DNA of 64,000 bases, taken from Limisphaerales bacterium. GTDB lineage: Bacteria; Verrucomicrobiota; Verrucomicrobiia; Limisphaerales; JACDHS01. The stretch spans positions 15,284 through 79,283 of the forward strand of contig JBKJKE010000008.1 of assembly GCA_046597605.1 (NCBI GenBank). The letters run 5' to 3'. Of this stretch, positions 2,883 through 55,576 are shown in pieces. The stretch's first letter is position 1. Each line of letters begins with the position of its first letter. Both the position numbers and the translations under genes were made by a program. The notes beneath the pieces were generated by a model that saw only the letters and a program-made list of their open reading frames with translations, was not told the DNA's origin and did no database searches.

Positions 2883-4148
2883 ATGCGACGCGTTTATTTA
2901 GATCATCAGTCCACCACACCGCTGTTGCCCGAGGTGTTTGAGGAAATGAAGCCATATTTCCTGGAAGCTTTCGGGAATCCTTCCTCCCTGCACCACCATG
3001 GTTTGCGCGTTCGGGACGCAATGATTAAAGCACGTCAGCAATGTGCCGCACTGATTAACGCCGACTCCCCCGAGGACATCATCTTCACCAGTGATGGCAC
3101 GGAATCTACGAACCTGGCGATCAAGGGCGTCGCTTATGCCAATCAACGAAAAGGGAATCATTTTGTAGTCGCGGAGACGGAGCATCCGTCAGTGATCAAC
3201 TCACTCGAATTTCTGGAAAAGCAGGGTTTTACCTTTACCCGCGTCAAAGTGGATCCAGAAGGGGTCATCAATCCGGAAGACGTTCGTGCAGCCATCACCG
3301 ACAAAACCATCATGATCGCAGTGCATCATGCGAACCATGACATTGGCACAATCCAGCCGGTGAAAGAAATTGGCAAGATTGCCAACGAGAAGGGGATTCC
3401 GTTTTACGTGGATTGTGAAGCTAGCGCTGGATGGCTTCCGATCGACGTTCAGTCCTGGGGCGCGAACCTCGTCTCATTCTCAGCGCATCGTTTTTACGGG
3501 CCAAAAGGGGTGGGGGTGCTTTACCGAAACCGCCGGGCTCGTCTGATCAGTATTTTGCATGGCGGCGTGCAGGAGGGCGGTCGTCGTTCGGGAATGGAGA
3601 ATGTCCCGGCAATCGTTGGTGGCGGTCTTGCTGCGGAAATCGCACTGCGCGAGATGCCTGGACGCATCGACCACACTGGGAAGCTCCAGAAACGTTTGTG
3701 GGACGGCCTCAAGGCGAACATCAAGTTCATCAAACTGAATGGTCCGGAACCCGGTCCAAAGCGCATCTCGACCAATCTGAATCTGAGCACCGAGTTTATC
3801 GAAGGCGAAGGTCAGCTATTGTTGTGCGATAATTTTGGCATCGCGGTGGCCAGTGGTTCCAGTTGCGTCAGCAAATCGTTAAAAATCTCGCACGTTCTTT
3901 CTGCGATTGGCCTTGATCACGCGCTCGCCCAGGGGAACATCATTATGTCGCTTGGCAAAGACAACACGGAGGAAGAGGTCGACTACACCATCGAAACGTT
4001 CGTCAAGATCGTGAACAAGCTTCGTGGTATGTCGCCGATGTGGGATGAGTTCGAACGCGGCATTCTGGATTCGGTCATCGCACCCACCGGTCGCGGCAAA
4101 TCGTTTTCACAGCACGCTGCCGATATCTCGGGCAAAGCGGCTCATTAA
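2883..4148 (+). CDS. Cysteine desulfurase (NifS/IscS, class V aminotransferase) homologue with Arg in place of the PLP-binding Lys
   Basis: Family motifs are present: YLDHQSTTP, GNPSSLHHHG, FTSDGTESTNLAIKG, VAETEHPSV, YVDCEAS, and the active-site Cys loop ASGSSCVS. The canonical S-x-S-x-HK-x-x-GPKG reads SFSAHRFYGPKGVG (codons cat cgt at 3486-3491). Confidence 0.85.
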   Translation: MRRVYLDHQSTTPLLPEVFEEMKPYFLEAFGNPSSLHHHGLRVRDAMIKARQQCAALINADSPEDIIFTSDGTESTNLAIKGVAYANQRKGNHFVVAETEHPSVINSLEFLEKQGFTFTRVKVDPEGVINPEDVRAAITDKTIMIAVHHANHDIGTIQPVKEIGKIANEKGIPFYVDCEASAGWLPIDVQSWGANLVSFSAHRFYGPKGVGVLYRNRRARLISILHGGVQEGGRRSGMENVPAIVGGGLAAEIALREMPGRIDHTGKLQKRLWDGLKANIKFIKLNGPEPGPKRISTNLNLSTEFIEGEGQLLLCDNFGIAVASGSSCVSKSLKISHVLSAIGLDHALAQGNIIMSLGKDNTEEEVDYTIETFVKIVNKLRGMSPMWDEFERGILDSVIAPTGRGKSFSQHAADISGKAAH

Positions 4149-4172
4149 CAACCCGGTAATTTCTCTTCTTTG

Positions 4173-4204
4173 AAAAGCCTCTATCTTTCGATAGAGGCTT
4201 TTTG
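4173..4204. terminator. Bidirectional rho-independent terminator between convergent genes
   Basis: aaaaGCCTCTATC-tttc-GATAGAGGCttttt. Perfect 9-bp stem flanked by an A-run and a T-run, between the stop at 4148 (+) and the stop at 4232 (-). Confidence 0.8.
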
Positions 4205-4231
4205 GCGCTTACCGCCTGCTCCGACTCGTAG

Positions 4232-7200
4232 TCAATCAGACTTGGGAACAAAGAAGACCCCGATATCGAGCGGAGCATTTGGGACATTTGTCTTCTCCGT
4301 TTCCACCGTGAATTTAGAACTCGATCCGCCTTGCACGAAAAGTTGATATTCTCCGGGCAAGACATCTGGAATCTCAAAGGTGCCGTCTGGATGTGGTTTC
4401 AAATTGCCTCGGAAGTAAAGCTCTCCCAAATCGCTATTCTGAAATTCGATCCATGCCTTCCAATCATTTTCGTCTCCGCGTCCTCCGACGTGTGGAGCTG
4501 TCGGGTGAAAATTCATCATCACGCCTTCCCAGGAGCTACGTCCATCGAGACGTCCTTTGACGGTCCTTCCGCGTCCGCCTAAAATGATTTTGGTAGGCAC
4601 CCCGCTTGTAACGTCGACATGGGCGAACATCCCAGGGAGAACAACTCCGGTGCTTCCCTTGCCAGGCATACTCAAAGTGAAAGGCAATGAGACCTGGGTC
4701 CGCCCGGGTAGAAGTTTCTCAATTACGAATCGACCCTTTAAATCCGTGCCCGCTTTCGCGTATTGGTGAACAACCCCGGATTCGGCATAATCCCGATAGG
4801 TCAAAAGGGAAACTTCTTCGTTAGCGCCCGCTTTATCTTTCCAGACAACTTCGCCTTCGATTCTCCCCCACGCCTGCAGATGAATCTCCCGCATCTGTTG
4901 AAATTCAGAAAAAAGCATTTCTCGCACCCCGCTGTCATGCACGATCAGCGCCACTGCGGTGGGATCGTTTAAGTCTGGTGCAGAGAAACCCCCTTCCGCA
5001 TCGGTCTGAACAAAGAGGGGCCGGCGCCATTGGTCCTGTGGTTTGTCCTCCGGTGGATCTTTGAATCCCCTCAGTTTGCCATGATCAAGCACGGCATCGC
5101 GATGACTCATGGCCAGCGCCAGAGTCGCTCCAGAAGCCGGCATTCCGTCCGGTGTCAAAACACGACCTCGGATACCAGGGTCCTCGACAAGCACAATTGA
5201 GAAGGCCTTCGCCCCGTCACTTTTCTTGAACACGACTGTAGAGGCAGGACGATAGCCATCTGCTTCGACTCTAATGGACATTTCCTCGTAGCCTCGGTCC
5301 AGGGGCCAGTCGAATAAACCGTTGGTGCCGAAACGCAGCGTGTGGGGTTGCCAATTTATGATCCCGTCCGGACTCTCGGGGCGTCTTTTAAGACTGCCTG
5401 CAAGCACACGAAAAACCGGCATCGGTCCTTCTTTACTAAAAACCTTGAGGCGAATGGAATTGGTAAAAGCTGGAATGCCGCTTTCGGGTTCAACCCGCAC
5501 CGGTGCTGGCCGATTTTCGGACCGCTTTCCCAATTCTCGATCACGTGCTTTGGTTTGCCGTTGCAACCGGAAATCTGCCGTGGCCTTTTTGCCATCAACG
5601 ATAAACTCCAACGGAGTGTTTGTTTTATAACCGGGTGCCCAGGCCGTTAGATCCGGCGGATCAAAGCGAGTAGGCCTCGAACTTTTGTACCAGGTCCATT
5701 GAGTTTGGAATACGTAGCGACCTGCCGTGTCACTTGAAGCCTCGTGAATTTCACCGGGTGGATCGATTCGAAGGGTGCCTTTGACTTGCGCTCCAGGAAT
5801 CGGTTTTCCCGTTTTGTCGTCGATCACGGTGCCGCTAACGGCGAGGGGAGGGCCTGCTGTGGTGAGGTAAACTTCTCCTTCGGTCGAAGCCTTCATCTTA
5901 AATGGCAGCGGCGCGGCGAGTCCCACGAGTAAACCCACGATTACGAAAATCGCCGTTGTTCCCAGCCAGATCCGGCGTCGAAGTGGGCTCAGATCCAGCG
6001 GGAAAAACCAAGGCGTGCTGAGTAAAATCGGGGTCGCTATCAGCGCAACGAAACTCAGTAGAAGCAGCGCAAGCGGGAATTCCATTTGAAATCCCAGACC
6101 GACGCTGAAGAAGGCAGTAATGAGCGTAACGGCATAGGCAGCGCGAAATCGTTTAACAAGTCCCAGGGCCAATAACATCTTCAGTGACACATCCACCAAA
6201 AGACCTGGCCAATCTTTACCGTTCATTCCTACCATTACCAACTCGCACAAAGCACTCACCATCAGAGCAAATGCCGAAACCCATAGAATTTTCGGTCTTC
6301 CTTTAGGCGCTGCTCCGGAAGCGGTGCTCGACTGCCGCGACAACGGGGGAGGGGGACAGGGTGTTGTTCCCTGTGTATTCTCCCCAGGGGTGGAGGCGAT
6401 CGTTTCCACCTCGGTTTTGAACACACTCGCTTGCGAGTATCGCCGGTCCGGATTTTTCTCCAAAGCGCGCAGCACCACTTCATCCAGACGAACATCGATT
6501 TGTACTTTTCGAGAAGGAGGTTCCACTTGTTTGCCGGGCAACTCACCGGTGAGCATCTGATAGAAAACCACGCCGAGGGCATAGATATCGGATCGATGAT
6601 CCACTTCCAATGGTCTGTCTCTCTGTTCCGGAGACATGTAGCTGGGTGTCCCCATGACCGTGCCGCCATCAGTCAAAGGGGTGCCGGCTGGGTGGTGAGT
6701 TCCGTCGGTGGCCCCGTCAGGAACGCCGACCAACTTCGCCAATCCGAAATCGGCCACCTTTACGCGGCCTCTTCTATCCAATAAAATGTTCTCGGGTTTG
6801 ATGTCGCGATGAACAATGCCGTGGTCGTGCGCAAACTGCAGTGCATCGCAAATCTGGGGAACGATTGCCAATGCTTCCCGAGGGGAGACGCGCCCCGCAT
6901 CCAGCAATTCGCGCAGGTTCAAACCATCAACGAATTCCATCAGGAAGAAGAAGAGGCCATCGGCCCGGCCAAATTCATGGATGGTAACGATTCCAGGATG
7001 ATTCAGTTTGGCGAGTGCCTTTGCCTCTCGGGCGAACCTTTCTGCAAATGCGGGGGCGTCACTGATACCCGGTGGGAGGATTTTCAGTGCAACGATCCTA
7101 TCGAGATCTTTTTGCCTCGCCTTATAAACGGCACCCATCCCACCGCGTCCCAGTAACTCGATAATTTCAAGGTGCGGAAATTTCGAAGCCAGCTCGGCTG

Positions 7201-7381
7201 GCGTCGGTGGTGGTAGATTGGGCGCCTTTGCTTTCGTTGAACCAGGCTCTCCACTGAAATCAGTCTGACTCGCCATATTCATCGCCATCACGCACCGAGG
7301 ACACAACCCGGCCGGGGCGTTTGGCGGAAGAGGGGTACCGCACTGGGGACAAATCGGGCGAGTTGAGCTCATACCATTCAA
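4232..7381 (-). CDS. Membrane Ser/Thr protein kinase with N-terminal zinc ribbon and C-terminal beta-sandwich sensor region
   Basis: CPQCG..CPRC ribbon. Hanks motifs GRGGMGAVYKA, VALK, HRDIKPENILL, DFGLAK, SYMSPEQ. A block of TM helices mid-protein. C-terminal carboxypeptidase-regulatory-like segments (VSGTVIDDKTGKPIPGAQV, IRGRVLTPDGMPASGATL). Confidence 0.9.
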   Translation of the reverse strand: MNGMSSTRPICPQCGTPLPPNAPAGLCPRCVMAMNMASQTDFSGEPGSTKAKAPNLPPPTPAELASKFPHLEIIELLGRGGMGAVYKARQKDLDRIVALKILPPGISDAPAFAERFAREAKALAKLNHPGIVTIHEFGRADGLFFFLMEFVDGLNLRELLDAGRVSPREALAIVPQICDALQFAHDHGIVHRDIKPENILLDRRGRVKVADFGLAKLVGVPDGATDGTHHPAGTPLTDGGTVMGTPSYMSPEQRDRPLEVDHRSDIYALGVVFYQMLTGELPGKQVEPPSRKVQIDVRLDEVVLRALEKNPDRRYSQASVFKTEVETIASTPGENTQGTTPCPPPPLSRQSSTASGAAPKGRPKILWVSAFALMVSALCELVMVGMNGKDWPGLLVDVSLKMLLALGLVKRFRAAYAVTLITAFFSVGLGFQMEFPLALLLLSFVALIATPILLSTPWFFPLDLSPLRRRIWLGTTAIFVIVGLLVGLAAPLPFKMKASTEGEVYLTTAGPPLAVSGTVIDDKTGKPIPGAQVKGTLRIDPPGEIHEASSDTAGRYVFQTQWTWYKSSRPTRFDPPDLTAWAPGYKTNTPLEFIVDGKKATADFRLQRQTKARDRELGKRSENRPAPVRVEPESGIPAFTNSIRLKVFSKEGPMPVFRVLAGSLKRRPESPDGIINWQPHTLRFGTNGLFDWPLDRGYEEMSIRVEADGYRPASTVVFKKSDGAKAFSIVLVEDPGIRGRVLTPDGMPASGATLALAMSHRDAVLDHGKLRGFKDPPEDKPQDQWRRPLFVQTDAEGGFSAPDLNDPTAVALIVHDSGVREMLFSEFQQMREIHLQAWGRIEGEVVWKDKAGANEEVSLLTYRDYAESGVVHQYAKAGTDLKGRFVIEKLLPGRTQVSLPFTLSMPGKGSTGVVLPGMFAHVDVTSGVPTKIILGGRGRTVKGRLDGRSSWEGVMMNFHPTAPHVGGRGDENDWKAWIEFQNSDLGELYFRGNLKPHPDGTFEIPDVLPGEYQLFVQGGSSSKFTVETEKTNVPNAPLDIGVFFVPKSD

Positions 7382-7577
7382 TTACCGGTGCATCGCCTTT
7401 TGTTACAGAGATAGCTACCGGGCACCGATCCGCCGACCGGCTTCGAACCATCCGTCGACGGAACTGCCTTCGTACGGGAGAACAATAAAGTAATTCTTAA
7501 CCTGTTCAGTCTTCAGCAGGTTACCGAAAACGAGAGGTCTGTCACAGAGGATCTTATCCAGCCTGAGTCCCTTTGCT

Positions 7578-7925
7578 TCGGTCGGCAAACCAATCCGACG
7601 GACTCTTTTCAGGATCCGAAATATACCCTGTCGGCTCCAACAACGTCTTTTTAAGACCGGAAAAGTACTATGTCGGACCTGACAGGGTCGTTTCAAGGAC
7701 CTGAAACGTAATATGTCAGCCCCGACAGGCCCGTTTTAGAACCTGAAATGTCGTATGTCGGCTCCGATGGAGCCATTTCAGAATCCGAAATCTACTATGT
7801 CGGCCCTGACAATGGTCGTTTTAGAAACTGAAATCTGCTCTGTCAGGCCCGACCGGCTCGATTTAGAAGCAATTGATGACCATGTCGGACGTGCCAGAAC
7901 AGGCTCAGGATCCAGCTGGGCGTGC
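7578..7925. repeat. Tandem array 1: about 8 degenerate 42-43 bp hairpin units
   Basis: TGTC(G/A)G anchors at 7629, 7671, 7714, 7756, 7798, 7841 and 7883, spaced 42 or 43 bp. Units carry TGTCGG-N3-(C)TGACA and GTTTCA-N6-TGAAAC inverted repeats (perfect at 7690-7707). Confidence 0.85.
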
Positions 7926-7965
7926 GCTTGGCTCACCAGAAGTTTCTACTTTGCCGCTTTCTGCC

Positions 7966-10900
7966 TCACTTTTCCACTGCGGGACTGGTTGTGACGAATT
8001 GTTCGCCTTCTGTGTTTCCCACCCTCCTTGGCCAGGAGACTTGGGCGGAGGCTGGGTTGGACAATGTGTGATTGATGTGTTTCAAACCTTCTCTTCCCGA
8101 CACCACGCACGCAGGCGCATTGTCGAAGTTAATATGCAGCTGCCCATCGATTGGACGAGGCTCCCCACTGCTCAAGTCTCGAAGGCTGCGGAAAGTTGCC
8201 AGGGCTCGAGGCAAAACCGGCGAGTATTGTATACTCATACTCGCGTAGGAAATCCTGGAATCCGCGAGCAACCGGCTTAGTTCCCCGGCAAACTCATGCT
8301 CAAAGCGGGCGCGTGTTTTCTCTGCCCGGTCGATCATCGTGGCGACATACACGCTGCCGAGCACCACGACAAAACCGGACACAATGATCGCAATGCCCGC
8401 CCAGTGGTGACGCCTAAGGGGCGCAGTGTTATCAGCTACCGGGTCCTGAGCTCGAGTCAGGCTGGAGCAAATTTTCCGGATCAGGAATACATTCAGGGGC
8501 AACATGACGAGCATTGCCTCTATAGGGCCCACCTTGAACGCAGTCGCTATGGCAACGAGAAGCGCATCCAAAGTTAACAAGGGAAAAAGCAGCGAACCGA
8601 ACAGAGCCAGAGGCAATCCGGACAAATGTCCCCGAGAGTGCCGGATCTGGGAGAGGGCAATGAAGCCTAAGAGAGTCGTTCCTAAGACGGCGCTTACGCC
8701 CACGATGGTGAGCGACAGCAGTATGCCATTCACCAGGTCGTGCCCCAAAGACCTCCGGAGATCAATCGCAGCAGACAGTCCAAAGGGCGACCAGAGAACT
8801 ACCGTGAGCAAGAAACAGAAAGCCCACGCGGCACCAAGAATTGCGCTACGAGAAAGACGAGGATGCGCTCTCTGATCTGAACTGCATGCAAACCGGGAGT
8901 CACTTCGGCATATCCAAATTGCACCCATCATCAGGCCGAGAAATGTTGCAAGGGCGGCGACAATAGAATTTGGCTTCGGCCTGTTAGAAACAGTGGGCGC
9001 TTCGGTCGCGGTTGGCTGGTTTGGACGGATCCCATCGGAGTTTATCGCTGCCTTGTTGGCCTCCAGTTCCGCCAGTTTGTAGCGGAAGACAATTCCCCGA
9101 GGTTGTGCACTGAGGCCAAGGATCTGCAGAATTCCATAGTTGGTTTGAGCGGTCTTGAAGAGGTAGGTGGCCGGAAATTGCCCCGTGCCGATCAAGGACA
9201 TAGTGTCGGCCTTCTCGAGGGTGAGTTGTTGCCGAACAAGGTAGGAAGGGAGATTGGTCCAGGAGGCAGTGGGGGTTGCAATAACAGAACGACAGAGGGC
9301 CACCAGTCTAGGAGCCTCCATGCTAAGGTCGGGCAATAGATCGATCCCGCTCTTGAGCCATTGCGATTGTTCGTGGCGAATTCTCTCCAAGGTTTTGGTT
9401 TGGTTAGTGACAGTAAAATCCGGGGGCGATGCCATGCGACCGGTGTCCAGATCGTATCCATCGTCTCGGGCCGACTCCGCGTTCACGGTCGCCGTTCGAA
9501 TCGGACCGAAGCCTGGCAGAGTGGAATCGCTATCTTCGTCCTCTACAATTACTCGGTTGAGATGGAAGAGGATTTGATCCGAAAGCTGCTGAGCGAGATC
9601 CCCCGTGATCTGCAGCCTTCCCATTGGGATCTCGGAGTTGACGACCGGTGCCGTCAACACGGCATTATCAAACAAAATCGCAATCTGCTGGTTTATGTGC
9701 TCTCGGGTTATTTGAGCGAACAGATCTTTTCCTGTTTCCGTGAGGATCAACTCAATCTCCGGCCTTTCGGTGACCTGATTCTTGGTGAGAAAAGCCGCCG
9801 CAACAGATGTTTCATCCATCAACATCTGTGGGCGTAGCCGCAGTTTGTGCGTGGCAGTTCGGGGATCGCTGAATTCTTCGAGTATGCCCTTGTCAGACTG
9901 TTCAGCGACCAGCCGAAATTGCAGTCGTTGACGGTTCGGTATTTCCGTTTTGCCCGGTGGGACTTTATCTCGCGAGATCTGTTCCCGATCAGACGCGGGT
10001 TTATAGGGCGCGTCCTTGTATTCCGGATAGCGACGTTCGCGAGCATCGCTGTAAACAACACCAAAACGATTCGCAAACCACATGGCTTCCTCCGCAGTGC
10101 CTGGATTATGAACGACTTGTTCGACAAAATCTTCCGTGGGGTCTGAACCTTTCTTCCATTGCAGTCGGACGATGACGGTGGTTCCGGTGGCGTCGTATAC
10201 ACGTGTGTCCCAACGCTGCGGGTTACCTGTGCCCAGAGGTGTGCTGGCGAGAAGCGAGCCATCCGGGCGAAAAAGATCCACACCAAGAACGAGTTCCTGC
10301 GGGCCGCTCTCTGAATTAATCCCCATACCGAGGAACCGGGCATGGAAGCGGTAGCCTACCGCATTGGTCTGAATGAAGGTGTGTTCATCTTTGGTTTTTA
10401 ACCAGGTCTGGTATTCAGGCATGCGCCGCACGTCGGCCAGAAAGGATTTCGGATCGGGATAAGAGACTTGGCTCCCATCCCAGGCTAGGGTCAAGGTAAC
10501 AGTGGGATACAGTGACCTGCGCTCCGCAATATTTTTGTTCGCCGCCTGATTCACCAACTTGTACTGCACCTTTACACCAGCAGGGCTTTCGGAAAATCCA
10601 CCGATCTGCAGAAGTCCGCGATTCCCCGACACTGTCCGAAAAGCAAAAAGTTCAGGAGAACTCAGCCCGGTAATTTTATAGGATCGAAACCCGTGCTTTA
10701 CACTTGGATCCGCCAGGGTGAGGTGATTAGTCCCGTCGTTAAGGGCCGAATCAATGTCCTCGACTGTGACCTTTTCCCATTCTACGCCGGTAATCGAAGC
10801 AAGCTTCAGCGGAGTCCATAGGTCCCATTGCTTCTTATGACTGAATGCCAATAGATCAATTCCGTGCTCCGCAGACCATTGGATCAGGACATCCTCACCT

Positions 10901-12666
10901 TGTTTTTCCAAATCGGTGGGCACTTCAACTTCTTTGCCTTCATCCATGTCGTACCCCTTGATCGGGCGTTGGGTGGAAAACGAATACAGCACGTGTTTAA
11001 TTGAAGCCGTGAACGGAGCTGGGTGAGTGCTTTTGCTTGAAGCATCGGTTTTAGTGCGGGTATGGAAAATAACTTTTCCAATGATATCAGTCGCCTGAAC
11101 AGCCTGATTGGCCTCACCGCTCCGCGCCACCTCCAGGACTCCTTGGGTCGGACCAGCACTGATCGCGCGCCCCAGCCACACCTGTCCGTTACGCCGAAAC
11201 GCCACGATATCTCGTTCTTCGAATTGTTTACTGAGCCGGTTTGCAATGACGTAACTACCCTTTGGAATTTCTGGATCGACTGCGTCCGTTTTGAGACGAA
11301 GGGGAGCAATCACCATCAGGAGCGCAACCGCGATCAAGGCTGCAAGTGGCAGTTCCCAGATCAACGATCTAATGTGGTTGATCCATCCATTGCGCATCCT
11401 GCGCCCGATCCTTGCAGCGATGCTGCTCTCTGGTGAAAGCGGGGCCTGCAACGGCCAGCCACCATTTGGATTTTTTTTGGCCATATGCCATGCCATCAGG
11501 CTCATCAGCCAGGCGAGAATACCGCAGGCAATCAACATCCCCAGACCCGCATTCCGATTATCGTCTCGCCAATGGACCAGCGCCGCCACGACTCCGATGG
11601 CGGCCATTGCGAAACTGATATTGCCCCAGAGGAGTTCCGGGTGAGCCACAACTCTCTTCTGGAAAGTTTGACTTGGGGTAGAAGAGACAGTTTCGACATC
11701 GGCCTTCAGGCCGCTTGCCTGGGCATAACGGCGTTCCGGAGTTTTCTCCAATGCCCGCAGAACGATCTCATCCAATCGAACATCGATATGCACCTTTTTG
11801 GAAGGAGCCTGTATCTGCTTGCCCGGCAGTTCGCCCGTGAGCATTTGGTAGAACACGACACCAAGTGCATAAATGTCGGCGCGGTGATCTACTTCGGTCG
11901 GACGATCCCGTTGTTCGGGTGCCATGTAGTGGGGCGTGCCCAGGACCCCAGTGACGCTTTGCTCTGATGCGGCACCTGAAGCGGACTCAGCCCCCATTTG
12001 TCCCACAATCTTTGCCACACCGAAATCGGCCACCTTCACGCGGCCTTGACGGTCGAGCAGGATGTTCTCCGGCTTAATGTCGCGATGGACAACTCCGTGG
12101 TCGTGAGCGTATTGCAACGCGTCGCAAATCTGGGGAACAATGGCGAGGGCTTCGCGTGCACTGATCCGCCCCCCGTTAAGTAACTGGCGGAGATTCACCC
12201 CATCAACAAACTCCATCAGGAAGAAGAAGAGTTCCTCGGTTTCACCAAACTCGTAAAGGGTGACGATCCCCGGATGGTTCAAGTTCGCGAGTGCTTGAGC
12301 CTCGCGGGTAAAGCGTGCTGCAAAAGTTATGTGGTCACCTATTCCAGGCGGAAGGATTTTTAACGCCACGAGACGTCCGAGTTTCTTCTGTCGGGCTTTG
12401 TAAACTGCACCCATTCCTCCGCGGCCGATGAGTTCAATAATTTCCAACTGCGGAAAACGAGCGGCGAGTTCCTCGGGAGCCGGTGGAACGAATGCGCCGG
12501 CTTCTGCCTGGGCAGCACATTCTTGTGAATCGGTAGGAAATCCCGCTTTGAGCAAGCATTCCTGGCAAAGGCCTTTGGGCGCAGTAGGCGTTAAAGCTTT
12601 TCCGCAGCTGGGGCATTGAGGCGTTGTATTCATTCTCTTACCCACTTCTTCGGGAAAGCCGGGCAA
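7966..12666 (-). CDS. Giant multidomain membrane Ser/Thr protein kinase (zinc ribbon, kinase, S26-like segment, SecD-P1-like segment, polytopic C-terminus)
   Basis: CPSCG..CQEC ribbon. The kinase core is nearly identical in motif order to the downstream kinase (GRGGMGAVYKA, HRDIKPENILL, DFGVAK, HYMAPEQ). TM helices. A LepB-like stretch (SYVIANRL..DIVAFRRNGQVWLGRA..IIGKVIF). A SecD head-like stretch (IAILFDNAVLTAPVVNSEIPMGRLQITG). The C-terminal ~400 aa are polytopic. The start may be ATG 12633 (MNTTPQCPSCG). Confidence 0.9.
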   Translation of the reverse strand: MPGFPEEVGKRMNTTPQCPSCGKALTPTAPKGLCQECLLKAGFPTDSQECAAQAEAGAFVPPAPEELAARFPQLEIIELIGRGGMGAVYKARQKKLGRLVALKILPPGIGDHITFAARFTREAQALANLNHPGIVTLYEFGETEELFFFLMEFVDGVNLRQLLNGGRISAREALAIVPQICDALQYAHDHGVVHRDIKPENILLDRQGRVKVADFGVAKIVGQMGAESASGAASEQSVTGVLGTPHYMAPEQRDRPTEVDHRADIYALGVVFYQMLTGELPGKQIQAPSKKVHIDVRLDEIVLRALEKTPERRYAQASGLKADVETVSSTPSQTFQKRVVAHPELLWGNISFAMAAIGVVAALVHWRDDNRNAGLGMLIACGILAWLMSLMAWHMAKKNPNGGWPLQAPLSPESSIAARIGRRMRNGWINHIRSLIWELPLAALIAVALLMVIAPLRLKTDAVDPEIPKGSYVIANRLSKQFEERDIVAFRRNGQVWLGRAISAGPTQGVLEVARSGEANQAVQATDIIGKVIFHTRTKTDASSKSTHPAPFTASIKHVLYSFSTQRPIKGYDMDEGKEVEVPTDLEKQGEDVLIQWSAEHGIDLLAFSHKKQWDLWTPLKLASITGVEWEKVTVEDIDSALNDGTNHLTLADPSVKHGFRSYKITGLSSPELFAFRTVSGNRGLLQIGGFSESPAGVKVQYKLVNQAANKNIAERRSLYPTVTLTLAWDGSQVSYPDPKSFLADVRRMPEYQTWLKTKDEHTFIQTNAVGYRFHARFLGMGINSESGPQELVLGVDLFRPDGSLLASTPLGTGNPQRWDTRVYDATGTTVIVRLQWKKGSDPTEDFVEQVVHNPGTAEEAMWFANRFGVVYSDARERRYPEYKDAPYKPASDREQISRDKVPPGKTEIPNRQRLQFRLVAEQSDKGILEEFSDPRTATHKLRLRPQMLMDETSVAAAFLTKNQVTERPEIELILTETGKDLFAQITREHINQQIAILFDNAVLTAPVVNSEIPMGRLQITGDLAQQLSDQILFHLNRVIVEDEDSDSTLPGFGPIRTATVNAESARDDGYDLDTGRMASPPDFTVTNQTKTLERIRHEQSQWLKSGIDLLPDLSMEAPRLVALCRSVIATPTASWTNLPSYLVRQQLTLEKADTMSLIGTGQFPATYLFKTAQTNYGILQILGLSAQPRGIVFRYKLAELEANKAAINSDGIRPNQPTATEAPTVSNRPKPNSIVAALATFLGLMMGAIWICRSDSRFACSSDQRAHPRLSRSAILGAAWAFCFLLTVVLWSPFGLSAAIDLRRSLGHDLVNGILLSLTIVGVSAVLGTTLLGFIALSQIRHSRGHLSGLPLALFGSLLFPLLTLDALLVAIATAFKVGPIEAMLVMLPLNVFLIRKICSSLTRAQDPVADNTAPLRRHHWAGIAIIVSGFVVVLGSVYVATMIDRAEKTRARFEHEFAGELSRLLADSRISYASMSIQYSPVLPRALATFRSLRDLSSGEPRPIDGQLHINFDNAPACVVSGREGLKHINHTLSNPASAQVSWPRRVGNTEGEQFVTTSPAVEK

Positions 12667-12691
12667 AGGTTACATACGCGTTTCGAAATTG

Positions 12692-13447
12692 TCATTTCCC
12701 CGCGACTACTCCCATCAGATAGCGCAATTCTTCCTTCACTTCTTCCGGGGTCGCAACGGTATTGGCTATCTCGGATTCAAGCAGCTCGCGATAACGTTTC
12801 CGCAAACGGTGGACCGCAGTTTTTACAGCGCCTTCGCTTAAACCGAGTTCGGAGGCCAACGCCGCATAAGGCTGAGATTCTCTTGAACCAGTAAGCGTTT
12901 GCTTCAAGACGACGAATTGGCGCCTCTTTTCTTCGCCGCGGAATTCACCCTCCAGTCGATTTAATACTTTATCCAACAACGCAGTCGCCCATTCACGGTC
13001 GAAGGCTCTATCCACATTCGTCGGATCAGCAGGTTCGAGATCAAAACGTTCTTCGGCCATTGCCAGATCCAGCGAAAGAATTTGTCGGCCACCGCCGCGT
13101 TTTTGCGTCTGCAATTTTGCCCATTCGTCAGCGAGGAAATGGTTCATGGCACCAAGCATGTAGGAACGAAAGCGTCCACGGTCCCGATCCACATTGGCAA
13201 GTGATTGTCGCTCCAGGAGGCACGCAAAGAACGATTGCGTCAGATCCTGCGCATCATGCGGGGAATAGCCACGTCGGCGAACGTAGGCATACAGCGGATA
13301 CCAATAGGTTTGGCACAATTTCTCCAGGGCCATCCCCGCACGGATGGTGTCGGTTCGCCCCGCCGCCAGGACAACGCTCCAGTGCGTCGTCGCAAAATAG
13401 CATTGAGTGCCCGCAGGTTGCCCTGAGGAAATGACGCGGGTGGCCAT
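12692..13447 (-). CDS. ECF-type RNA polymerase sigma-70 family factor
   Basis: N-terminal TTHWSVVLAA..LEKLCQTYWYPLYAYVRRRGYSPHDAQDLTQSFF (region 2). C-terminal YAALASELGLSEGAVKTAVHRLRKRYRELL (region 4 HTH). Lies 25 bp upstream of the kinase gene on the same strand, with no anti-sigma gene. Confidence 0.85.
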   Translation of the reverse strand: MATRVISSGQPAGTQCYFATTHWSVVLAAGRTDTIRAGMALEKLCQTYWYPLYAYVRRRGYSPHDAQDLTQSFFACLLERQSLANVDRDRGRFRSYMLGAMNHFLADEWAKLQTQKRGGGRQILSLDLAMAEERFDLEPADPTNVDRAFDREWATALLDKVLNRLEGEFRGEEKRRQFVVLKQTLTGSRESQPYAALASELGLSEGAVKTAVHRLRKRYRELLESEIANTVATPEEVKEELRYLMGVVAGK

Positions 13448-14656: not shown

Positions 14657-14659
14657 CGG

Positions 14660-14975
14660 GGTCGATTCTTTGTGAAGTAAACCCCACAATGCGCGTATTA
14701 CGCTATCGATTCGTTTCGAAGTGACCCCACAATACGGGTATTACGGTGTCGAATCGTTTCGAAGTGACCCCACAATACGGGTATTGCGGTATCGATTCAT
14801 TTCAAAGTGATCCCACAATACGGGTATTGCGGTATCGAATCGTTTCAAAGTGACCCCACAATACGAGTATTGTGGTATCGAATCGTTTCGAAGGGACCCC
14901 ACAATATGGGTATTGCGGTATTGAATCGTTTCGATGTGACCCCACAATACGCAGAGTACCGGGGTTGATTCACCC
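14660..14975. repeat. Tandem array 2: 7 copies of a 43-bp double-hairpin unit
   Basis: CCCACAAT anchors at 14683, 14726, 14769, 14812, 14855, 14898 and 14941, exactly 43 bp apart. Unit palindrome CCACAATAC-GR-GTATTGYGG (perfect at 14856-14875), plus TCGAA-TCGT-TTCGA. Confidence 0.95.
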
Positions 14976-30465: not shown

Positions 30466-30920
30466 CGCGACACCAGAGCGCGCTACAAGTCGTTGCAGGT
30501 CCCGAGGAGCACATGAAACCTGCGTTACAGGCCGCTGCGGATCCCGCGAGCACATGAAACCTGCGTTTCCGGTCGCTGCGGATCCCGCGAGCACATGAAA
30601 CCTGCGTTACAGGTCGCTGCGGATCCCGCGAGCACGTGAAACCTGCGTTACAGGTCGCTGCGGATCCCGCGAGCACGTGAAACCTGCGTTACAGGCCGCT
30701 GCGGATCCCGCGAGCACATGAAACCTGCGTTTCAGGCCGTTGCGGGTCCCGCGAGCACATGAAACCTGCGTTTCAGGCCGCTGCGGATCCCGCGAGCACG
30801 TGAAACCTGCGTTTCAGGCCGCTGCGGATCCCGCGAGCACGTGAAACCTGCGTTTCAGGCCGTTGCGGATCCCGCGAGCACGTGAAAACCTGCGTTTCAG
30901 GTCGTTGCGCGCGGGGAAAT
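30466..30920. repeat. Tandem array 3: about 11 copies of a 41-bp hairpin unit
   Basis: GAGCAC anchors at 30507, 30548, 30589, 30630, 30671, 30712, 30753, 30794, 30835 and 30876, exactly 41 bp apart. Unit GAGCAC(A/G)TGAAACCTGCGTT(A/T)CAGG(C/T)CG(C/T)TGCGGATCCCGC with hairpin TGAAAC-CTGC-GTTTCA (for example 30719-30734) and GCGG-ATC-CCGC. Confidence 0.97.
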
Positions 30921-31081
30921 GAACTGTAACACGCGTCACAGGTGCTCCTTGAGAAGGCATCTGAACATTTTTTACGGTGCAAACCGATGGGGGAATTGTA
31001 ACCTGTTCCCTTGCTTTTCCCGTCTTGAGAGAATGCGGTTGGTTTCGAACCAACCCGGGAATCAGTCGATTAATTGCTGAA

Positions 31082-53931: not shown

Positions 53932-54402
53932 ATGACAACACAATTGAAAGAACAAATTATCAATCATCCTTTTCTCTGCACGATGTCCCAGGAGAACCAG
54001 GAATTAGTCACAAAAAATGCTAAGCGAGTGGAATACGCACCCGGAGAAATCATTTTTCGCCAGGGCGAGCCTGCCAACCGTTTGTTTCTCATCGATTCAG
54101 GCAGGGTCAACCTTGAATCCGCGCAGGGTGGCGGACAGTCGGTACGTATCCAGACCCTCGGTGAAAAAGAGGTGATCGGTTGGTCATGGCTCTTCCCTCC
54201 GTTCAGCTGGCACTTCACGGCCCGTGCGGTCGAACCCACCATCGTCACCGTGCTCGACGGTGGACATTTACTCGTCACAGCAGAAGAAAATCCCTCGTTC
54301 GGTTATGATTTGATGCGACGCGTTGCACAAATCGTCATCGAACGCTTGCAAACCACCCGCAAACAAGTGAAACCGGCGGATGAACAACTTTCATCCAACT
54401 GA
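53932..54402 (+). CDS. Stand-alone cyclic-nucleotide-binding domain protein, paralogue of 50982..51464
   Basis: FRQGEPANRLFLIDSGRVNLES..EVIGWSWLFPPFSWHFTARAV..ERLQTTR. Same motif order as the other copy, and no HTH. Confidence 0.8.
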   Translation: MTTQLKEQIINHPFLCTMSQENQELVTKNAKRVEYAPGEIIFRQGEPANRLFLIDSGRVNLESAQGGGQSVRIQTLGEKEVIGWSWLFPPFSWHFTARAVEPTIVTVLDGGHLLVTAEENPSFGYDLMRRVAQIVIERLQTTRKQVKPADEQLSSN

Positions 54403-54687
54403 AGTTGTTTGCTCAATGGCAATGGCAGAAGCCTTGCGGCATTGCCCACGTCGGTCTCTTTGACCTGAAGTCCGTTTTGGTTGAGTGCAACCGGGTTCGA
54501 CTTGTTCAAGGGGACGTTGGCAACGAGTGAACTTTTCGAGGGTTTTTTCCACGGTGGCAGTCCAAACAAAGGGTGTTGGATCGGTGTTCCACATTGTCAG
54601 GAATTCCTGAATGGCTGCTGGCAGTTCCTGCACGCTTCGAAAAGCCTCGCCTTTGGGGGCGAGGATGGAGGAGAGGTGGCCCTTCGC
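54391..54687 (-). pseudogene. IS630-family transposase, C-terminal remnant
   Basis: ..FRSVQELPAAIQEFLTMWNTDPTPFVWTATVEKTLEKF matches the conserved IS630 C-terminus (..KPFVWTKTA..IL.K). No DDE core lies upstream in frame. Confidence 0.7.
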
Positions 54688-54899: not shown

Positions 54900-55130
54900 A
54901 CAGCACCTGTAACGCGCGTTACAGCCCGTTGCGAGACTTGCGAGCACCTGTAACGGCCGTAACGGGTCGTCGCCAGACTTTCCGGCACCTGTAACGCGCG
55001 TTACGGCTCGTTGCGAGACTTGCGAGCACCTGTAACGGCCGTAACAGGTCGTCGCCAGACTTTCCGGCACCCGTAACGCGCGTTACAGCTCGTCGCGAGA
55101 CTTGCAAGCACCTGTAACGCGTGTTTCAGG
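54900..55130. repeat. Tandem array 4: 6 copies of a 41-bp unit in two alternating subtypes (82-bp higher-order period)
   Basis: GCACC anchors at 54903, 54944, 54985, 55026, 55067 and 55108, exactly 41 bp apart. Subtype A carries the perfect palindrome CTGTAACGCGCGTTACAG (54907-54924). Subtype B carries CTGTAACGGCCGTAAC(G/A)GG. Confidence 0.95.
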
Positions 55131-55134
55131 ACAA

Positions 55135-55249
55135 TTGCAGAAGCGGGTTTGGATGCTCCGAGCTGATGCTCCTGCCAGATGCGATGAATCGTGTTCTTAC
55201 TGACTTTTTGGGCCCGGCCAGTGGGCGTGTGCTCCAATGTGTTGAACAT
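55135..55249 (-). pseudogene. IS630-family transposase, internal HTH remnant
   Basis: ..HTPTGRAQKVSKNTIHRIWQEHQLGASKP resembles the second HTH (..ISKSTVHRIW..HGLKPH) of IS630-type transposases. The frame then runs into array 4. Confidence 0.55.
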
Positions 55250-55261
55250 CTGGCCGGTCGC

Positions 55262-55576
55262 TTAAACTTCTGGATGCCGTCCCTTCCACCGGTAATGAGT
55301 TCGCACCAGGTTGGTTGCAATCGTGTAGAGCCAGGTGGAGAACTTTGCCTCGTGCCGAAACTTGGTCCGGTTCGAATAGACCTTCACAAACGTCTCCTGT
55401 GCCACGTCGTTCGCTTCTGCCTCGTTTGCTAATCGATGTGTTGGCGATTGCCAATGCTCTCCGAGCTGCCTTGCCTCCAAGCGACTCAGCGATTTCTGAA
55501 GAGTCTGTCCGGGTTTGCCCATTTCGACACTTAACCAACTCGTTCTGCTCAGAAGACCAAATTCCTTTGGGTACAA
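55262..55576 (-). pseudogene. ECF sigma factor, truncated after region 2
   Basis: ..NEAEANDVAQETFVKVYSNRTKFRHEAKFSTWLYTIATNLVRTHYRW is sigma-70 region 2. A stop follows and no region 4 exists; the IS630 remnant starts 13 bp downstream. Confidence 0.7.

Follow-up and report, generated by a model that had tools for sequence, protein, structure and literature searches.

Array 1, a tandem repeat lying between two Ser/Thr kinase genes in the 64,000-nucleotide stretch of DNA from a Verrucomicrobiota bacterium analysed here (the window), is best explained as a locus-specific minisatellite that arose by tandem amplification, is now decaying and probably lacks a sequence-specific function. We give this explanation about an even chance of being right. 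The array would have originated by local tandem amplification of a short dyad element, through slipped-strand or unequal recombination, with a first step from ~21 to 42 bp and later growth partly by 85-bp blocks of two units. Since then homogenisation would have ceased, leaving the units to drift. Its present role would be at most that of passive spacer DNA and of a part of any read-through transcript, and it would not be a sequence-specific RNA, promoter or bent-DNA element. Array 1 contains non-coding, intergenic tandem units of tens of bp, as bacterial minisatellites do.

The repeat was recovered by several independent approaches. Tandem Repeats Finder (TRF) reported it at 7618-7868 with a period of 42, 5.9 copies, 70% matches and a score of 169, and with looser penalties at 7595-7888 (7.0 copies, score 270). 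A repeat search found six in-register copies with spacings of 42, 43, 42, 42 and 43, and a degenerate unit pattern matched five times where 0 matches were expected. Base autocorrelation reached 0.50 (lag 85) and 0.48 (lag 42), against a mean of 0.314 +/- 0.012 for the maximum over lags in 1000 shuffles; the corresponding per-lag z values were 10.1 and 9.8. An nhmmer profile of the unit bounds the array at 7593-7870, with a barely recognisable last unit extending to ~7901. Periodicity above background, on which an earlier sequence-only reading had let the array stand or fall, is thus backed by TRF, autocorrelation and nhmmer. All seven TGTC(G/A)G anchors of that reading proved exact (7629, 7671, 7714, 7756, 7798, 7841 and 7883), and between 7400 and 8000 the + strand has no further such hexamer, at a density of 0.56 per kb over the window as a whole. 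Its figure of about 8 units is a fair one, given six clear 42/43-bp units and two marginal ones. The looser copy that it placed near 7580 amounts to only half a unit, 7593-7646 matching the distal part of the unit model. An independent Logan assembly of the same sample (SRR31159418) is base-for-base identical over 3232-8288, so array 1 is not an assembly artefact.

Table 1. Coordinates of the kinase cluster, array 1 and the other tandem arrays of the window.
Feature	Position	Strand	Evidence and remarks
Kinase B	4232..7372	-	1046 aa from ATG 7372; Pkinase and CarboxypepD_reg (Pfam)
Putative ECF-type promoter, kinase B	7379..7407	-	TGTAAC (7407-7402), N13, CCGGTAAT (7388-7381), 8 nt, ATG
Array 1	7593..7902	.	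TRF, repeat search, autocorrelation, nhmmer, unit alignment; non-coding
Array 1, clear units	7606-7647, 7648-7690, 7691-7732, 7733-7774, 7775-7817, 7818-7859		
Array 1, marginal parts	7593-7605, 7860-7901		Half unit; very degenerate last unit
Dyad 1, best copy	7690..7707	.	GTTTCA-N6-TGAAAC; other units TTTYAG-N3-CYGAAA (alignment columns 2-16)
Dyad 2, representative copy	7798..7811	.	TGTCGG-CC-CTGACA
Kinase A	7966..12633	-	1555 aa; N-terminal CPxCG..CxxC motif, Pkinase, SecDF_P1_head (Pfam, translation, Logan gene call)
Putative ECF-type promoter, kinase A	12646..12674	-	TGTAACC..TTTCCCGAAG; PWM 27.7, top match in window
ECF sigma factor gene	12692..13447	-	Pfam Sigma70_ECF, Sigma70_r2, r4_2; heads cluster
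Upstream ECF-type motif, sigma gene	13545-13517	-	PWM 18.6
Array 2	14657..14971	.	43 bp x ~6.8 copies, 86-89% matches; sequence unrelated to array 1
Array 3	30478..30950	.	41 bp x ~10 copies, 93-95% matches; related to array 4
Array 4	54901..55133	.	41-bp units, two alternating subtypes (period 82)

The alignment of seven units spans 43 columns; identity averages 74% per column and 61% between pairs of units. The unit is composed of two related dyads ~21 bp apart, TTTYAG-N3-CYGAAA and TGTCRG-N2/3-CYGACA, and the two inverted repeats per unit that had been proposed for this periodic non-coding array are thereby confirmed. The dyad centres fall at 19.0 and 40.5 of the 42-bp consensus, or 20.5-21.5 bp apart, and the array as a whole holds ~14 short palindromes spaced roughly two helical turns. 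Both dyads conform to one pattern, T-K-T-C-R-G, 2-3 nt, C-Y-G-A-M-A, an element of ~21 bp. The perfect GTTTCA-N6-TGAAAC first read at 7690-7707 is correct by sequence and is perfect in that one unit only. The best-conserved part of the unit is the left arm of dyad 2, TGTC-G, which is invariant in 7/7 aligned units (T24, G25, T26, C27 and G29 of the alignment). In the dyad-1 helix 76% of cells pair, with 0 compensatory changes, and in the dyad-2 helix 86% pair. For both dyads together the figure is 80.5%, against 37-51% when they are slid, with no excess over shuffles. From this and the lack of compensatory changes, the dyad symmetry appears to be inherited and not kept by covariation.

Array 1 is alone among the four arrays of the window in having a significant half-period (z = 4.5 at lag 21 and 3.8 at lag 22). 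Together with the visibly related dyads, this signal makes the 42-bp unit look like an old dimer of a ~21-bp element, and the slightly greater strength of the 85-bp signal over the 42-bp one suggests later growth in two-unit blocks. A heptamer substructure (42 = 6 x 7) was rejected, as lags 7, 14, 28 and 35 gave no signal. The units have drifted to ~61% identity through one-sided substitutions, and identity shows no nearest-neighbour gradient among them. Array 1 is indeed more degenerate than the others, as it had been described, with 61% mean pairwise unit identity versus 77-95% matches within arrays 2-4; from that value it can reasonably be inferred that it is older or less homogenised than they are.

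On the minus strand the gene order is ECF sigma, kinase A, array 1 and kinase B, and the linkage of ECF sigma factors to Ser/Thr kinases is a known arrangement (PMC7826278). Between the stop codon of kinase A and the distal end of the array are ~64 bp, and the array fills part of a 593-bp intergenic gap (7373-7965). The sequence-only reading correctly set the array in this gap and the kinase A stop at 7966, but kinase A has 1555 aa and not 1566; the start of kinase B is most likely ATG 7372 and not 7381, for a protein of 1046 and not 1049 aa. Homologues align from residues 1-8 of kinase B when it is started at this ATG, and the public gene call uses a later start (1018 aa). As had been supposed, array 1 separates two co-directional kinase genes and would be contained in any read-through transcript; no intrinsic terminator was predicted between the kinases. 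The gap has no coding content, all six frames being stop-rich, and units of 43 bp would break any reading frame. A sigma-gene remnant or coding repeat was also rejected, since tblastn returned noise only and every frame contains stops. The locus looks chromosomal, with dnaG and fabG-acpP-fabF nearby. The closest DNA-level relatives of kinase B are Verrucomicrobiota metagenome-assembled genomes that match in the kinase domain only, at 48-73% identity; a contig scan for an orthologous locus gave only such kinase-domain paralogues, in the same identity range, and a protein search found no full-length relative except in the same genome, whose 88-kb contig is in both NCBI and Logan. None of the collections searched yielded a close relative.

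Upstream of related kinases there is a conserved motif. Of 71 related loci, 63 have GTAAC in the ~100 nt preceding the kinase start, and alignment of 52 upstream regions on it brings out a common yGTAAC-N15-C(G/T)T(A/C)(A/T)G, whose end falls ~10-15 nt short of the ATG. Known ECF promoters have an AAC/CGT architecture, and by analogy we infer that the conserved motif is probably an ECF-type promoter. A position weight matrix (PWM) was built from 49 distinct sites in other Verrucomicrobiota kinase upstream regions, with none taken from the window; the lowest training-site score is 10.4 and the 99.9th percentile of the window is 2.3. The putative site of kinase B scores 8.9 and ranks 10 of 128,000 positions. 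Its layout, TGTAAC-N12-ACCGGTAA-N8-ATG, is exactly that of three other loci (L002, L019 and L027), where the TGTAAC-to-ATG spacing of 35 nt is identical, and relatives without any array have the same spacing. The agreement with these three loci supports the start codon at 7372.

Since kinase B would have its own promoter 186 bp beyond array 1, the array is not the core promoter. The suggestion that it forms part of the second kinase's promoter region is therefore not supported for the core promoter, for which there is the conserved ECF-type site at 7407-7379; array 1 might still act on kinase B as an upstream regulatory element. The real regulatory signal here would be the putative, strongly conserved GTAAC-type promoter that phylum-wide precedes the start codons of ECF-linked Ser/Thr kinases by ~35 nt, and a separate promoter for kinase B would mean that the two kinases can be transcribed independently.

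The sequence-only reading had proposed that a single profile might recover all four arrays of the window. We searched with nhmmer profiles of dimerised units, one per array. The array-1 profile matches array 1 only (7593-7870) and the array-2 profile array 2 only, while arrays 3 and 4 match each other at E values of 1e-8 to 1e-9. The array-4 profile touches 7691-7708 of array 1 only at E = 8, consensus alignments of array 1 with arrays 2 and 3 gave z = 1.0-1.7, and pairings of array 1 with arrays 4a/4b were absent among the best 16 consensus pairs. A common profile thus fails, with only arrays 3 and 4 being related, and homology of array 1 to arrays 2-4 was rejected by nhmmer profiles and consensus alignments alike. 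The TGAAAC/GTTTCA arms that array 1 was said to share with array 3 are present as hexamers, but the single perfect copy in array 1 has them in the opposite order (GTTTCA-N6-TGAAAC, versus TGAAAC-N4-GTTTCA in array 3). Nor were copies of the array-1 family found elsewhere. None was detected by nhmmer in the rest of the 64-kb window, by unit pattern in a further 17 kb of this genome (two extensions of the flanks, in which there were no more arrays either), or in 1.2 Mb of other Verrucomicrobiota loci. Searches of JGI metagenomes gave 0 matches with the array-1 pattern and 0 with the array-3/4 pattern, and a scan of IMG/VR viral sequences gave 0 matches.

Arrays of the same unit length do recur. 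A TRF scan of 1.29 Mb of mostly Verrucomicrobiota loci detected non-coding long-period arrays in L011 (41/82 bp), L014 (two arrays of 41 bp) and L015 (42 bp), as well as a 21-bp dyad array in L007. With those of the window there are eight non-coding arrays in four genomes, three of them besides this one, all with periods of 41-43 bp and none with a period of 30-40 or 44-60 bp. A dyad scan confirmed two dyads in arrays 1 and 2 and in L011, and weakly in L015. The second dyad of array 3 was seen only by eye; in array 4 the second dyad called by the scan overlaps its first, and a distinct second dyad was visible only by eye; and the scan found no two-dyad layout in one of the L014 arrays (L014a). 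In most of these arrays the dyads lie ~20-21 bp apart, and array 1, with its non-coding head-to-tail units of 41-43 bp and two dyads at this distance, has the same build. Consensus alignments revealed no shared sequence beyond arrays 3 and 4, and there is no common neighbour gene family, the neighbours including a Calx-beta/Kelch protein, an SSF symporter, UbiA and kinases. Array 1 is accordingly grouped with these recurring 41-43-bp, mostly two-dyad Verrucomicrobiota arrays by architecture and not by sequence. In both L015 and L007, a kinase with the promoter type of kinase B has a dyad-rich tandem array 200-300 bp upstream, a weak lead because the loci were chosen for containing such kinases.

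The main rival to a decaying minisatellite is a DNA-level platform, which we consider somewhat unlikely. Under this explanation the ~14 dyads would be phased, operator-like sites on one helix face, and a dimeric protein coating the spacer would insulate the kinase B promoter from kinase A read-through, or regulate it, by a logic resembling that of sopC or iterons. The rival stays alive through arms 5-7 bp long and separated by 2-6 nt, which are the size of operators and not of stable hairpins, through dyad centres two turns (20.5-21.5 bp) apart, and through the TGTC-G half-site found in all units, whose invariance despite drift elsewhere could reflect selection on a binding site. A unit of 41-43 bp corresponds to ~3.9-4.1 helical turns in every one of the eight arrays, and such constancy across unrelated arrays points toward a platform. 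There is also a precedent in sopC of plasmid F, which comprises 12 direct repeats of 43 bp, each with a 16-bp inverted repeat bound by SopB (PMC3177203). Array 1 resembles sopC in its head-to-tail repeats of this length, ~four helical turns, with short inverted repeats. However, sopC has one 16-bp dyad per unit and near-identical units, whereas array 1 has two dyads and 61% identity; sopC lies beside sopAB on a plasmid, whereas array 1 is flanked by kinases and apparently chromosomal; and array 1, unlike sopC, has three more arrays of different sequence close by. Pfam annotation of the flanks (two Ser/Thr kinases, the ECF sigma factor and an aminotransferase) revealed no parA/parB (sopA/sopB) beside array 1 and no classical operator-binding regulator or partition protein, the only nearby DNA-binding protein being the ECF sigma factor. 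Further evidence against a platform is that four sequence-unrelated arrays within 81 kb would require several different proteins, that erosion of the right arms and of dyad 1 is already severe, and that relatives have the same kinase promoter without any array.

A broader and more doubtful proposal is that array 1 is an eroded member of an undescribed, phylum-wide class whose 41-43-bp unit and two-dyad layout are kept but whose sequence can vary freely. Literature searches returned no prior description of such arrays in Verrucomicrobia. The tight range of 41-43 bp and the recurring two-dyad layout across unrelated arrays are unlike unconstrained slippage and count against the minisatellite explanation; this constancy of unit length and layout hints at a functional constraint or a ruler-like generating mechanism. 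If the class is genuine, it would imply either a DNA-binding factor that reads structure or phase along one helix face, making the arrays chromosomal analogues of sopC or iterons, or a ruler-type duplication of fixed length. A real constraint would mean a novel DNA-binding or repeat-generating activity in a poorly studied phylum, with a simple signature by which more cases could be found. As a decaying intergenic minisatellite, array 1 alone changes little, and the pattern across the eight arrays is the more useful result.

An RNA-level element seems quite unlikely. Hairpins in the 3' UTR of kinase A or between the cistrons would protect the transcript from 3'-5' exonucleases, or bring about its termination or processing, in the manner of REPs and BIMEs in E. 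coli operons. The array is indeed placed for such a role, 64 bp past the kinase A stop and on the path of any read-through, and as a whole it folds with a z of about -5. However, the fold z does not differ between the strands and reflects base pairing of one unit with another, while single units (-3 to -15 kcal/mol, z of +1.9 to -2.7) fold no better than shuffles. No compensatory changes are present, G-U versus A-C asymmetries favour different strands in different units, and no terminator-like site was predicted. A gathering-threshold Rfam scan of the whole window returned a tRNA only. The one Rfam family with a sub-threshold match to array 1 is STAXI (RF01728), likewise a tandem array of a small structured unit, or tandem hairpin; the match is weak, at 20.3 bits, half the gathering score of 40.5, with many broken or non-canonical pairs, and array 1 lacks the integrative-element gene context. 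Like the REPs and BIMEs of enterobacteria and pseudomonads, array 1 is intergenic and palindromic and lies between co-directional genes, as these elements often do, a position in which mRNA stability can be affected. REPs form strong GC-rich stems, and their orientation alternates within BIMEs. They are also dispersed in hundreds of copies, whereas array 1 consists of weak dyads in direct array and, in the DNA searched, occurs at one locus only. REPs carry GTAG or CGTC tags (PMC3733652), and the unit alignment of array 1 has neither tag at a dyad end and no stable stem-loop.

That array 1 descends from a mobile element, MITE-like or a satellite, which moves from locus to locus and inserted itself into the kinase spacer, is improbable to much the same degree as an RNA element. 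The behaviour of the other arrays speaks for mobility: arrays 3 and 4 are homologous though 24 kb apart, array 3 ends in one inverted, array-4-like unit (~30888-30946), and array 4 has a truncated ECF sigma gene and a weak transposase-like fragment next to it. Support was weak both for terminal inverted repeats flanking array 4 and for assigning the neighbouring fragments to IS630. For the array-1 family itself, none of the collections searched contained a second copy or solo unit, Pfam identified no transposase near the array, and no convincing terminal inverted repeats or target duplications were found, the only candidate being a 6-bp CCTGAG/CTCAGG pair.

It is very improbable that the units repeat, or serve as decoys of, the local ECF-type promoter, with TGAAAY and CCCGAC at N13 resembling the -35 GTAAC and the -10. 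By eye the units do read TGAAAY-N13-CCCGAC on the + strand where the promoters of the cluster read TGTAAC-N13/14-CCCGA, and units of array 3 reach a PWM score of 7.2, but the best scores in array 1 are -2.1 (+) and -4.7 (-) against at least 10.4 for the training sites, and copies on the + strand would point antisense into kinase A. The 49-site PWM thus speaks strongly against promoter copies or sigma decoys for array 1. Hardly any likelihood is left for intrinsically bent DNA, in which four-turn repeats would add their bends in phase: a wedge model, with parameters that we take to be those of the Bolshoy/Trifonov table, gives 3.95 turns per unit, and random tandem 42-mers are often strongly curved, but array 1, with an end-to-end/contour ratio of 0.97-0.98, proved less curved than 87% of the 229-bp stretches taken as background and than 90% of the random 42-mers in tandem, and 7/8 consensuses of the grouped arrays lie in the ordinary random range, the most curved, L011, being at the 14th percentile.

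Among known repeats, array 1 fits best with bacterial minisatellites or VNTRs such as the mycobacterial MIRUs, intergenic tandem units of 40-100 bp in gene clusters that arise by slippage or recombination. MIRUs form dispersed sequence families and often contain short ORFs overlapping the flanking genes, whereas array 1 has dyad symmetry, cannot be translated and has no sequence counterpart in the DNA searched. The boxB module of the pneumococcal BOX element is also an intergenic unit of ~45 bp, with a variable tandem number and secondary-structure potential. It is bracketed by boxA and boxC, and BOX is dispersed genome-wide, whereas nothing comparable flanks array 1. In architecture, array 1 is closest to sopC-type arrays and to minisatellites such as MIRU and boxB, and it is a member of none of these. 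A CRISPR array was rejected, since the whole 42-bp unit repeats and the linkers, of 6-7 nt, are homologous between units. Separately, a genuine CRISPR array with a period of 61 was observed at one of the other loci (L028).

Upstream of the kinase matches in comparison loci L002-L081, conservation is strong for an ECF-type promoter-like motif, yGTAAC-N15-C(G/T)T(A/C)(A/T)G, which ends about 10-15 nt 5' of the ATG. Of 71 Verrucomicrobiota and Planctomycetota loci, 63 have a GTAAC motif upstream of the ECF-linked Ser/Thr kinase gene, and in the window the conserved motif stands before the sigma gene and both kinase genes, with a variant before an AcrB-like transporter gene (table).

The motif bears on the start codons of two genes. 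Kinase B, the kinase gene at 4232-7372 (minus strand), is annotated publicly as 1018 aa, a call that starts 28 codons too late; a CPxCG...CPxC motif conserved at the N-terminus and the constant spacing between promoter and ATG put the start at 7372, giving 1046 aa. For the AcrB-like gene, a mechanical call starts at GTG 30977, so that the promoter-like motif at 30997 falls within the ORF, and the Pfam ACR_tran match opens at residue 39 of this long ORF. Translation probably begins instead at an ATG near 31034.

Coordinates of promoter-like motifs and repeat arrays in the window (first seven lines) and of repeats in comparison loci
Feature	Position	Strand	Description
ECF-type promoter-like motif	12674-12646	-	5' of kinase A
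ECF-type promoter-like motif	13545-13517	-	5' of sigma gene
ECF-type promoter-like motif	7407-7379	-	5' of kinase B
ECF-type promoter-like motif, variant	30997-31033	+	5' of AcrB-like transporter; spacer 2 bases longer
Array 2	14657-14971		43 bp x ~6.8 copies, 86-89% matches
Array 3	30478-30950		41 bp x ~10 copies, 93-95% matches
Array 4	54901-55133		two 41-bp subtypes alternating, period 82
Arrays in other Verrucomicrobiota MAGs	L011 2310-2627; L014 3-184 and 8306-8634; L015 2489-2849; L007 1-338		
Short heptamer tandem repeats	L005 9888-9913; L012 1097-1133; L042 10814-10881; L059 1582-1693; others		

Between array 1, the degenerate array separating the kinase genes, and kinase B, the spacer beside the kinase B promoter shares an exact 10-bp direct repeat, CCGACCGGCT, with one array 1 unit (7433-7442 and 7849-7858). 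In a predicted RNA fold, the spacer at 7418-7440 can also base-pair with the array's proximal end (7579-7600). Both the repeat and the pairing may be due to chance.

Arrays 3 and 4 are homologous. Array 3, flanked by the divergently oriented NAPRTase and AcrB-like genes, terminates in a single inverted unit of the array 4 subtype (about 30888-30946). Four of its units carry GTTACA instead of GTTTCA in the hairpin arm, and TGTAAC thereby arises on the minus strand. On one flank (55001-55576, minus strand) array 4 adjoins a truncated ECF sigma gene that retains only region 2 (55262-55576), together with a fragment (55001-55249) weakly resembling a transposase HTH. An adjoining ORF (54391-54633, minus strand) had no Pfam match and, only by eye, looks like a transposase C-terminus. 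The region resembles a rearrangement scar. The edge of array 4 coincides with the end of a contig in Logan, an independent assembly of the same sample.

Array 2, within which an independent assembly breaks, begins directly after the stop codon of a 357-aa protein that found no match in a Pfam search, and its other end lies 66 bp before fabG. Its dyads are CCACAATAC-GGG-TATTGCGG and TCGAA-TCGT-TTCGA.

Non-coding tandem arrays with units of 41 or 42 bp, and one with a 21-bp unit, are found in other Verrucomicrobiota MAGs. Dyads are evident in most, and none shows a sequence relationship to the window arrays. In L015 and L007 a kinase gene follows 200-300 bp downstream of the array. The Verrucomicrobiota and Planctomycetota loci also repeatedly contain short tandem repeats of a heptamer, in 3-6 copies; two of these lie about 30-70 bp upstream of the -35 element of a kinase promoter, at 67 and 111 bp 5' of the ATG. 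In contrast to the window-type arrays, which lack spacers, L028 7074-10905, from a Chthoniobacteraceae MAG, is a genuine CRISPR array with a period of 61 and the repeat CGGACCATCCCCACGGGCGTGGGGAGAAC.
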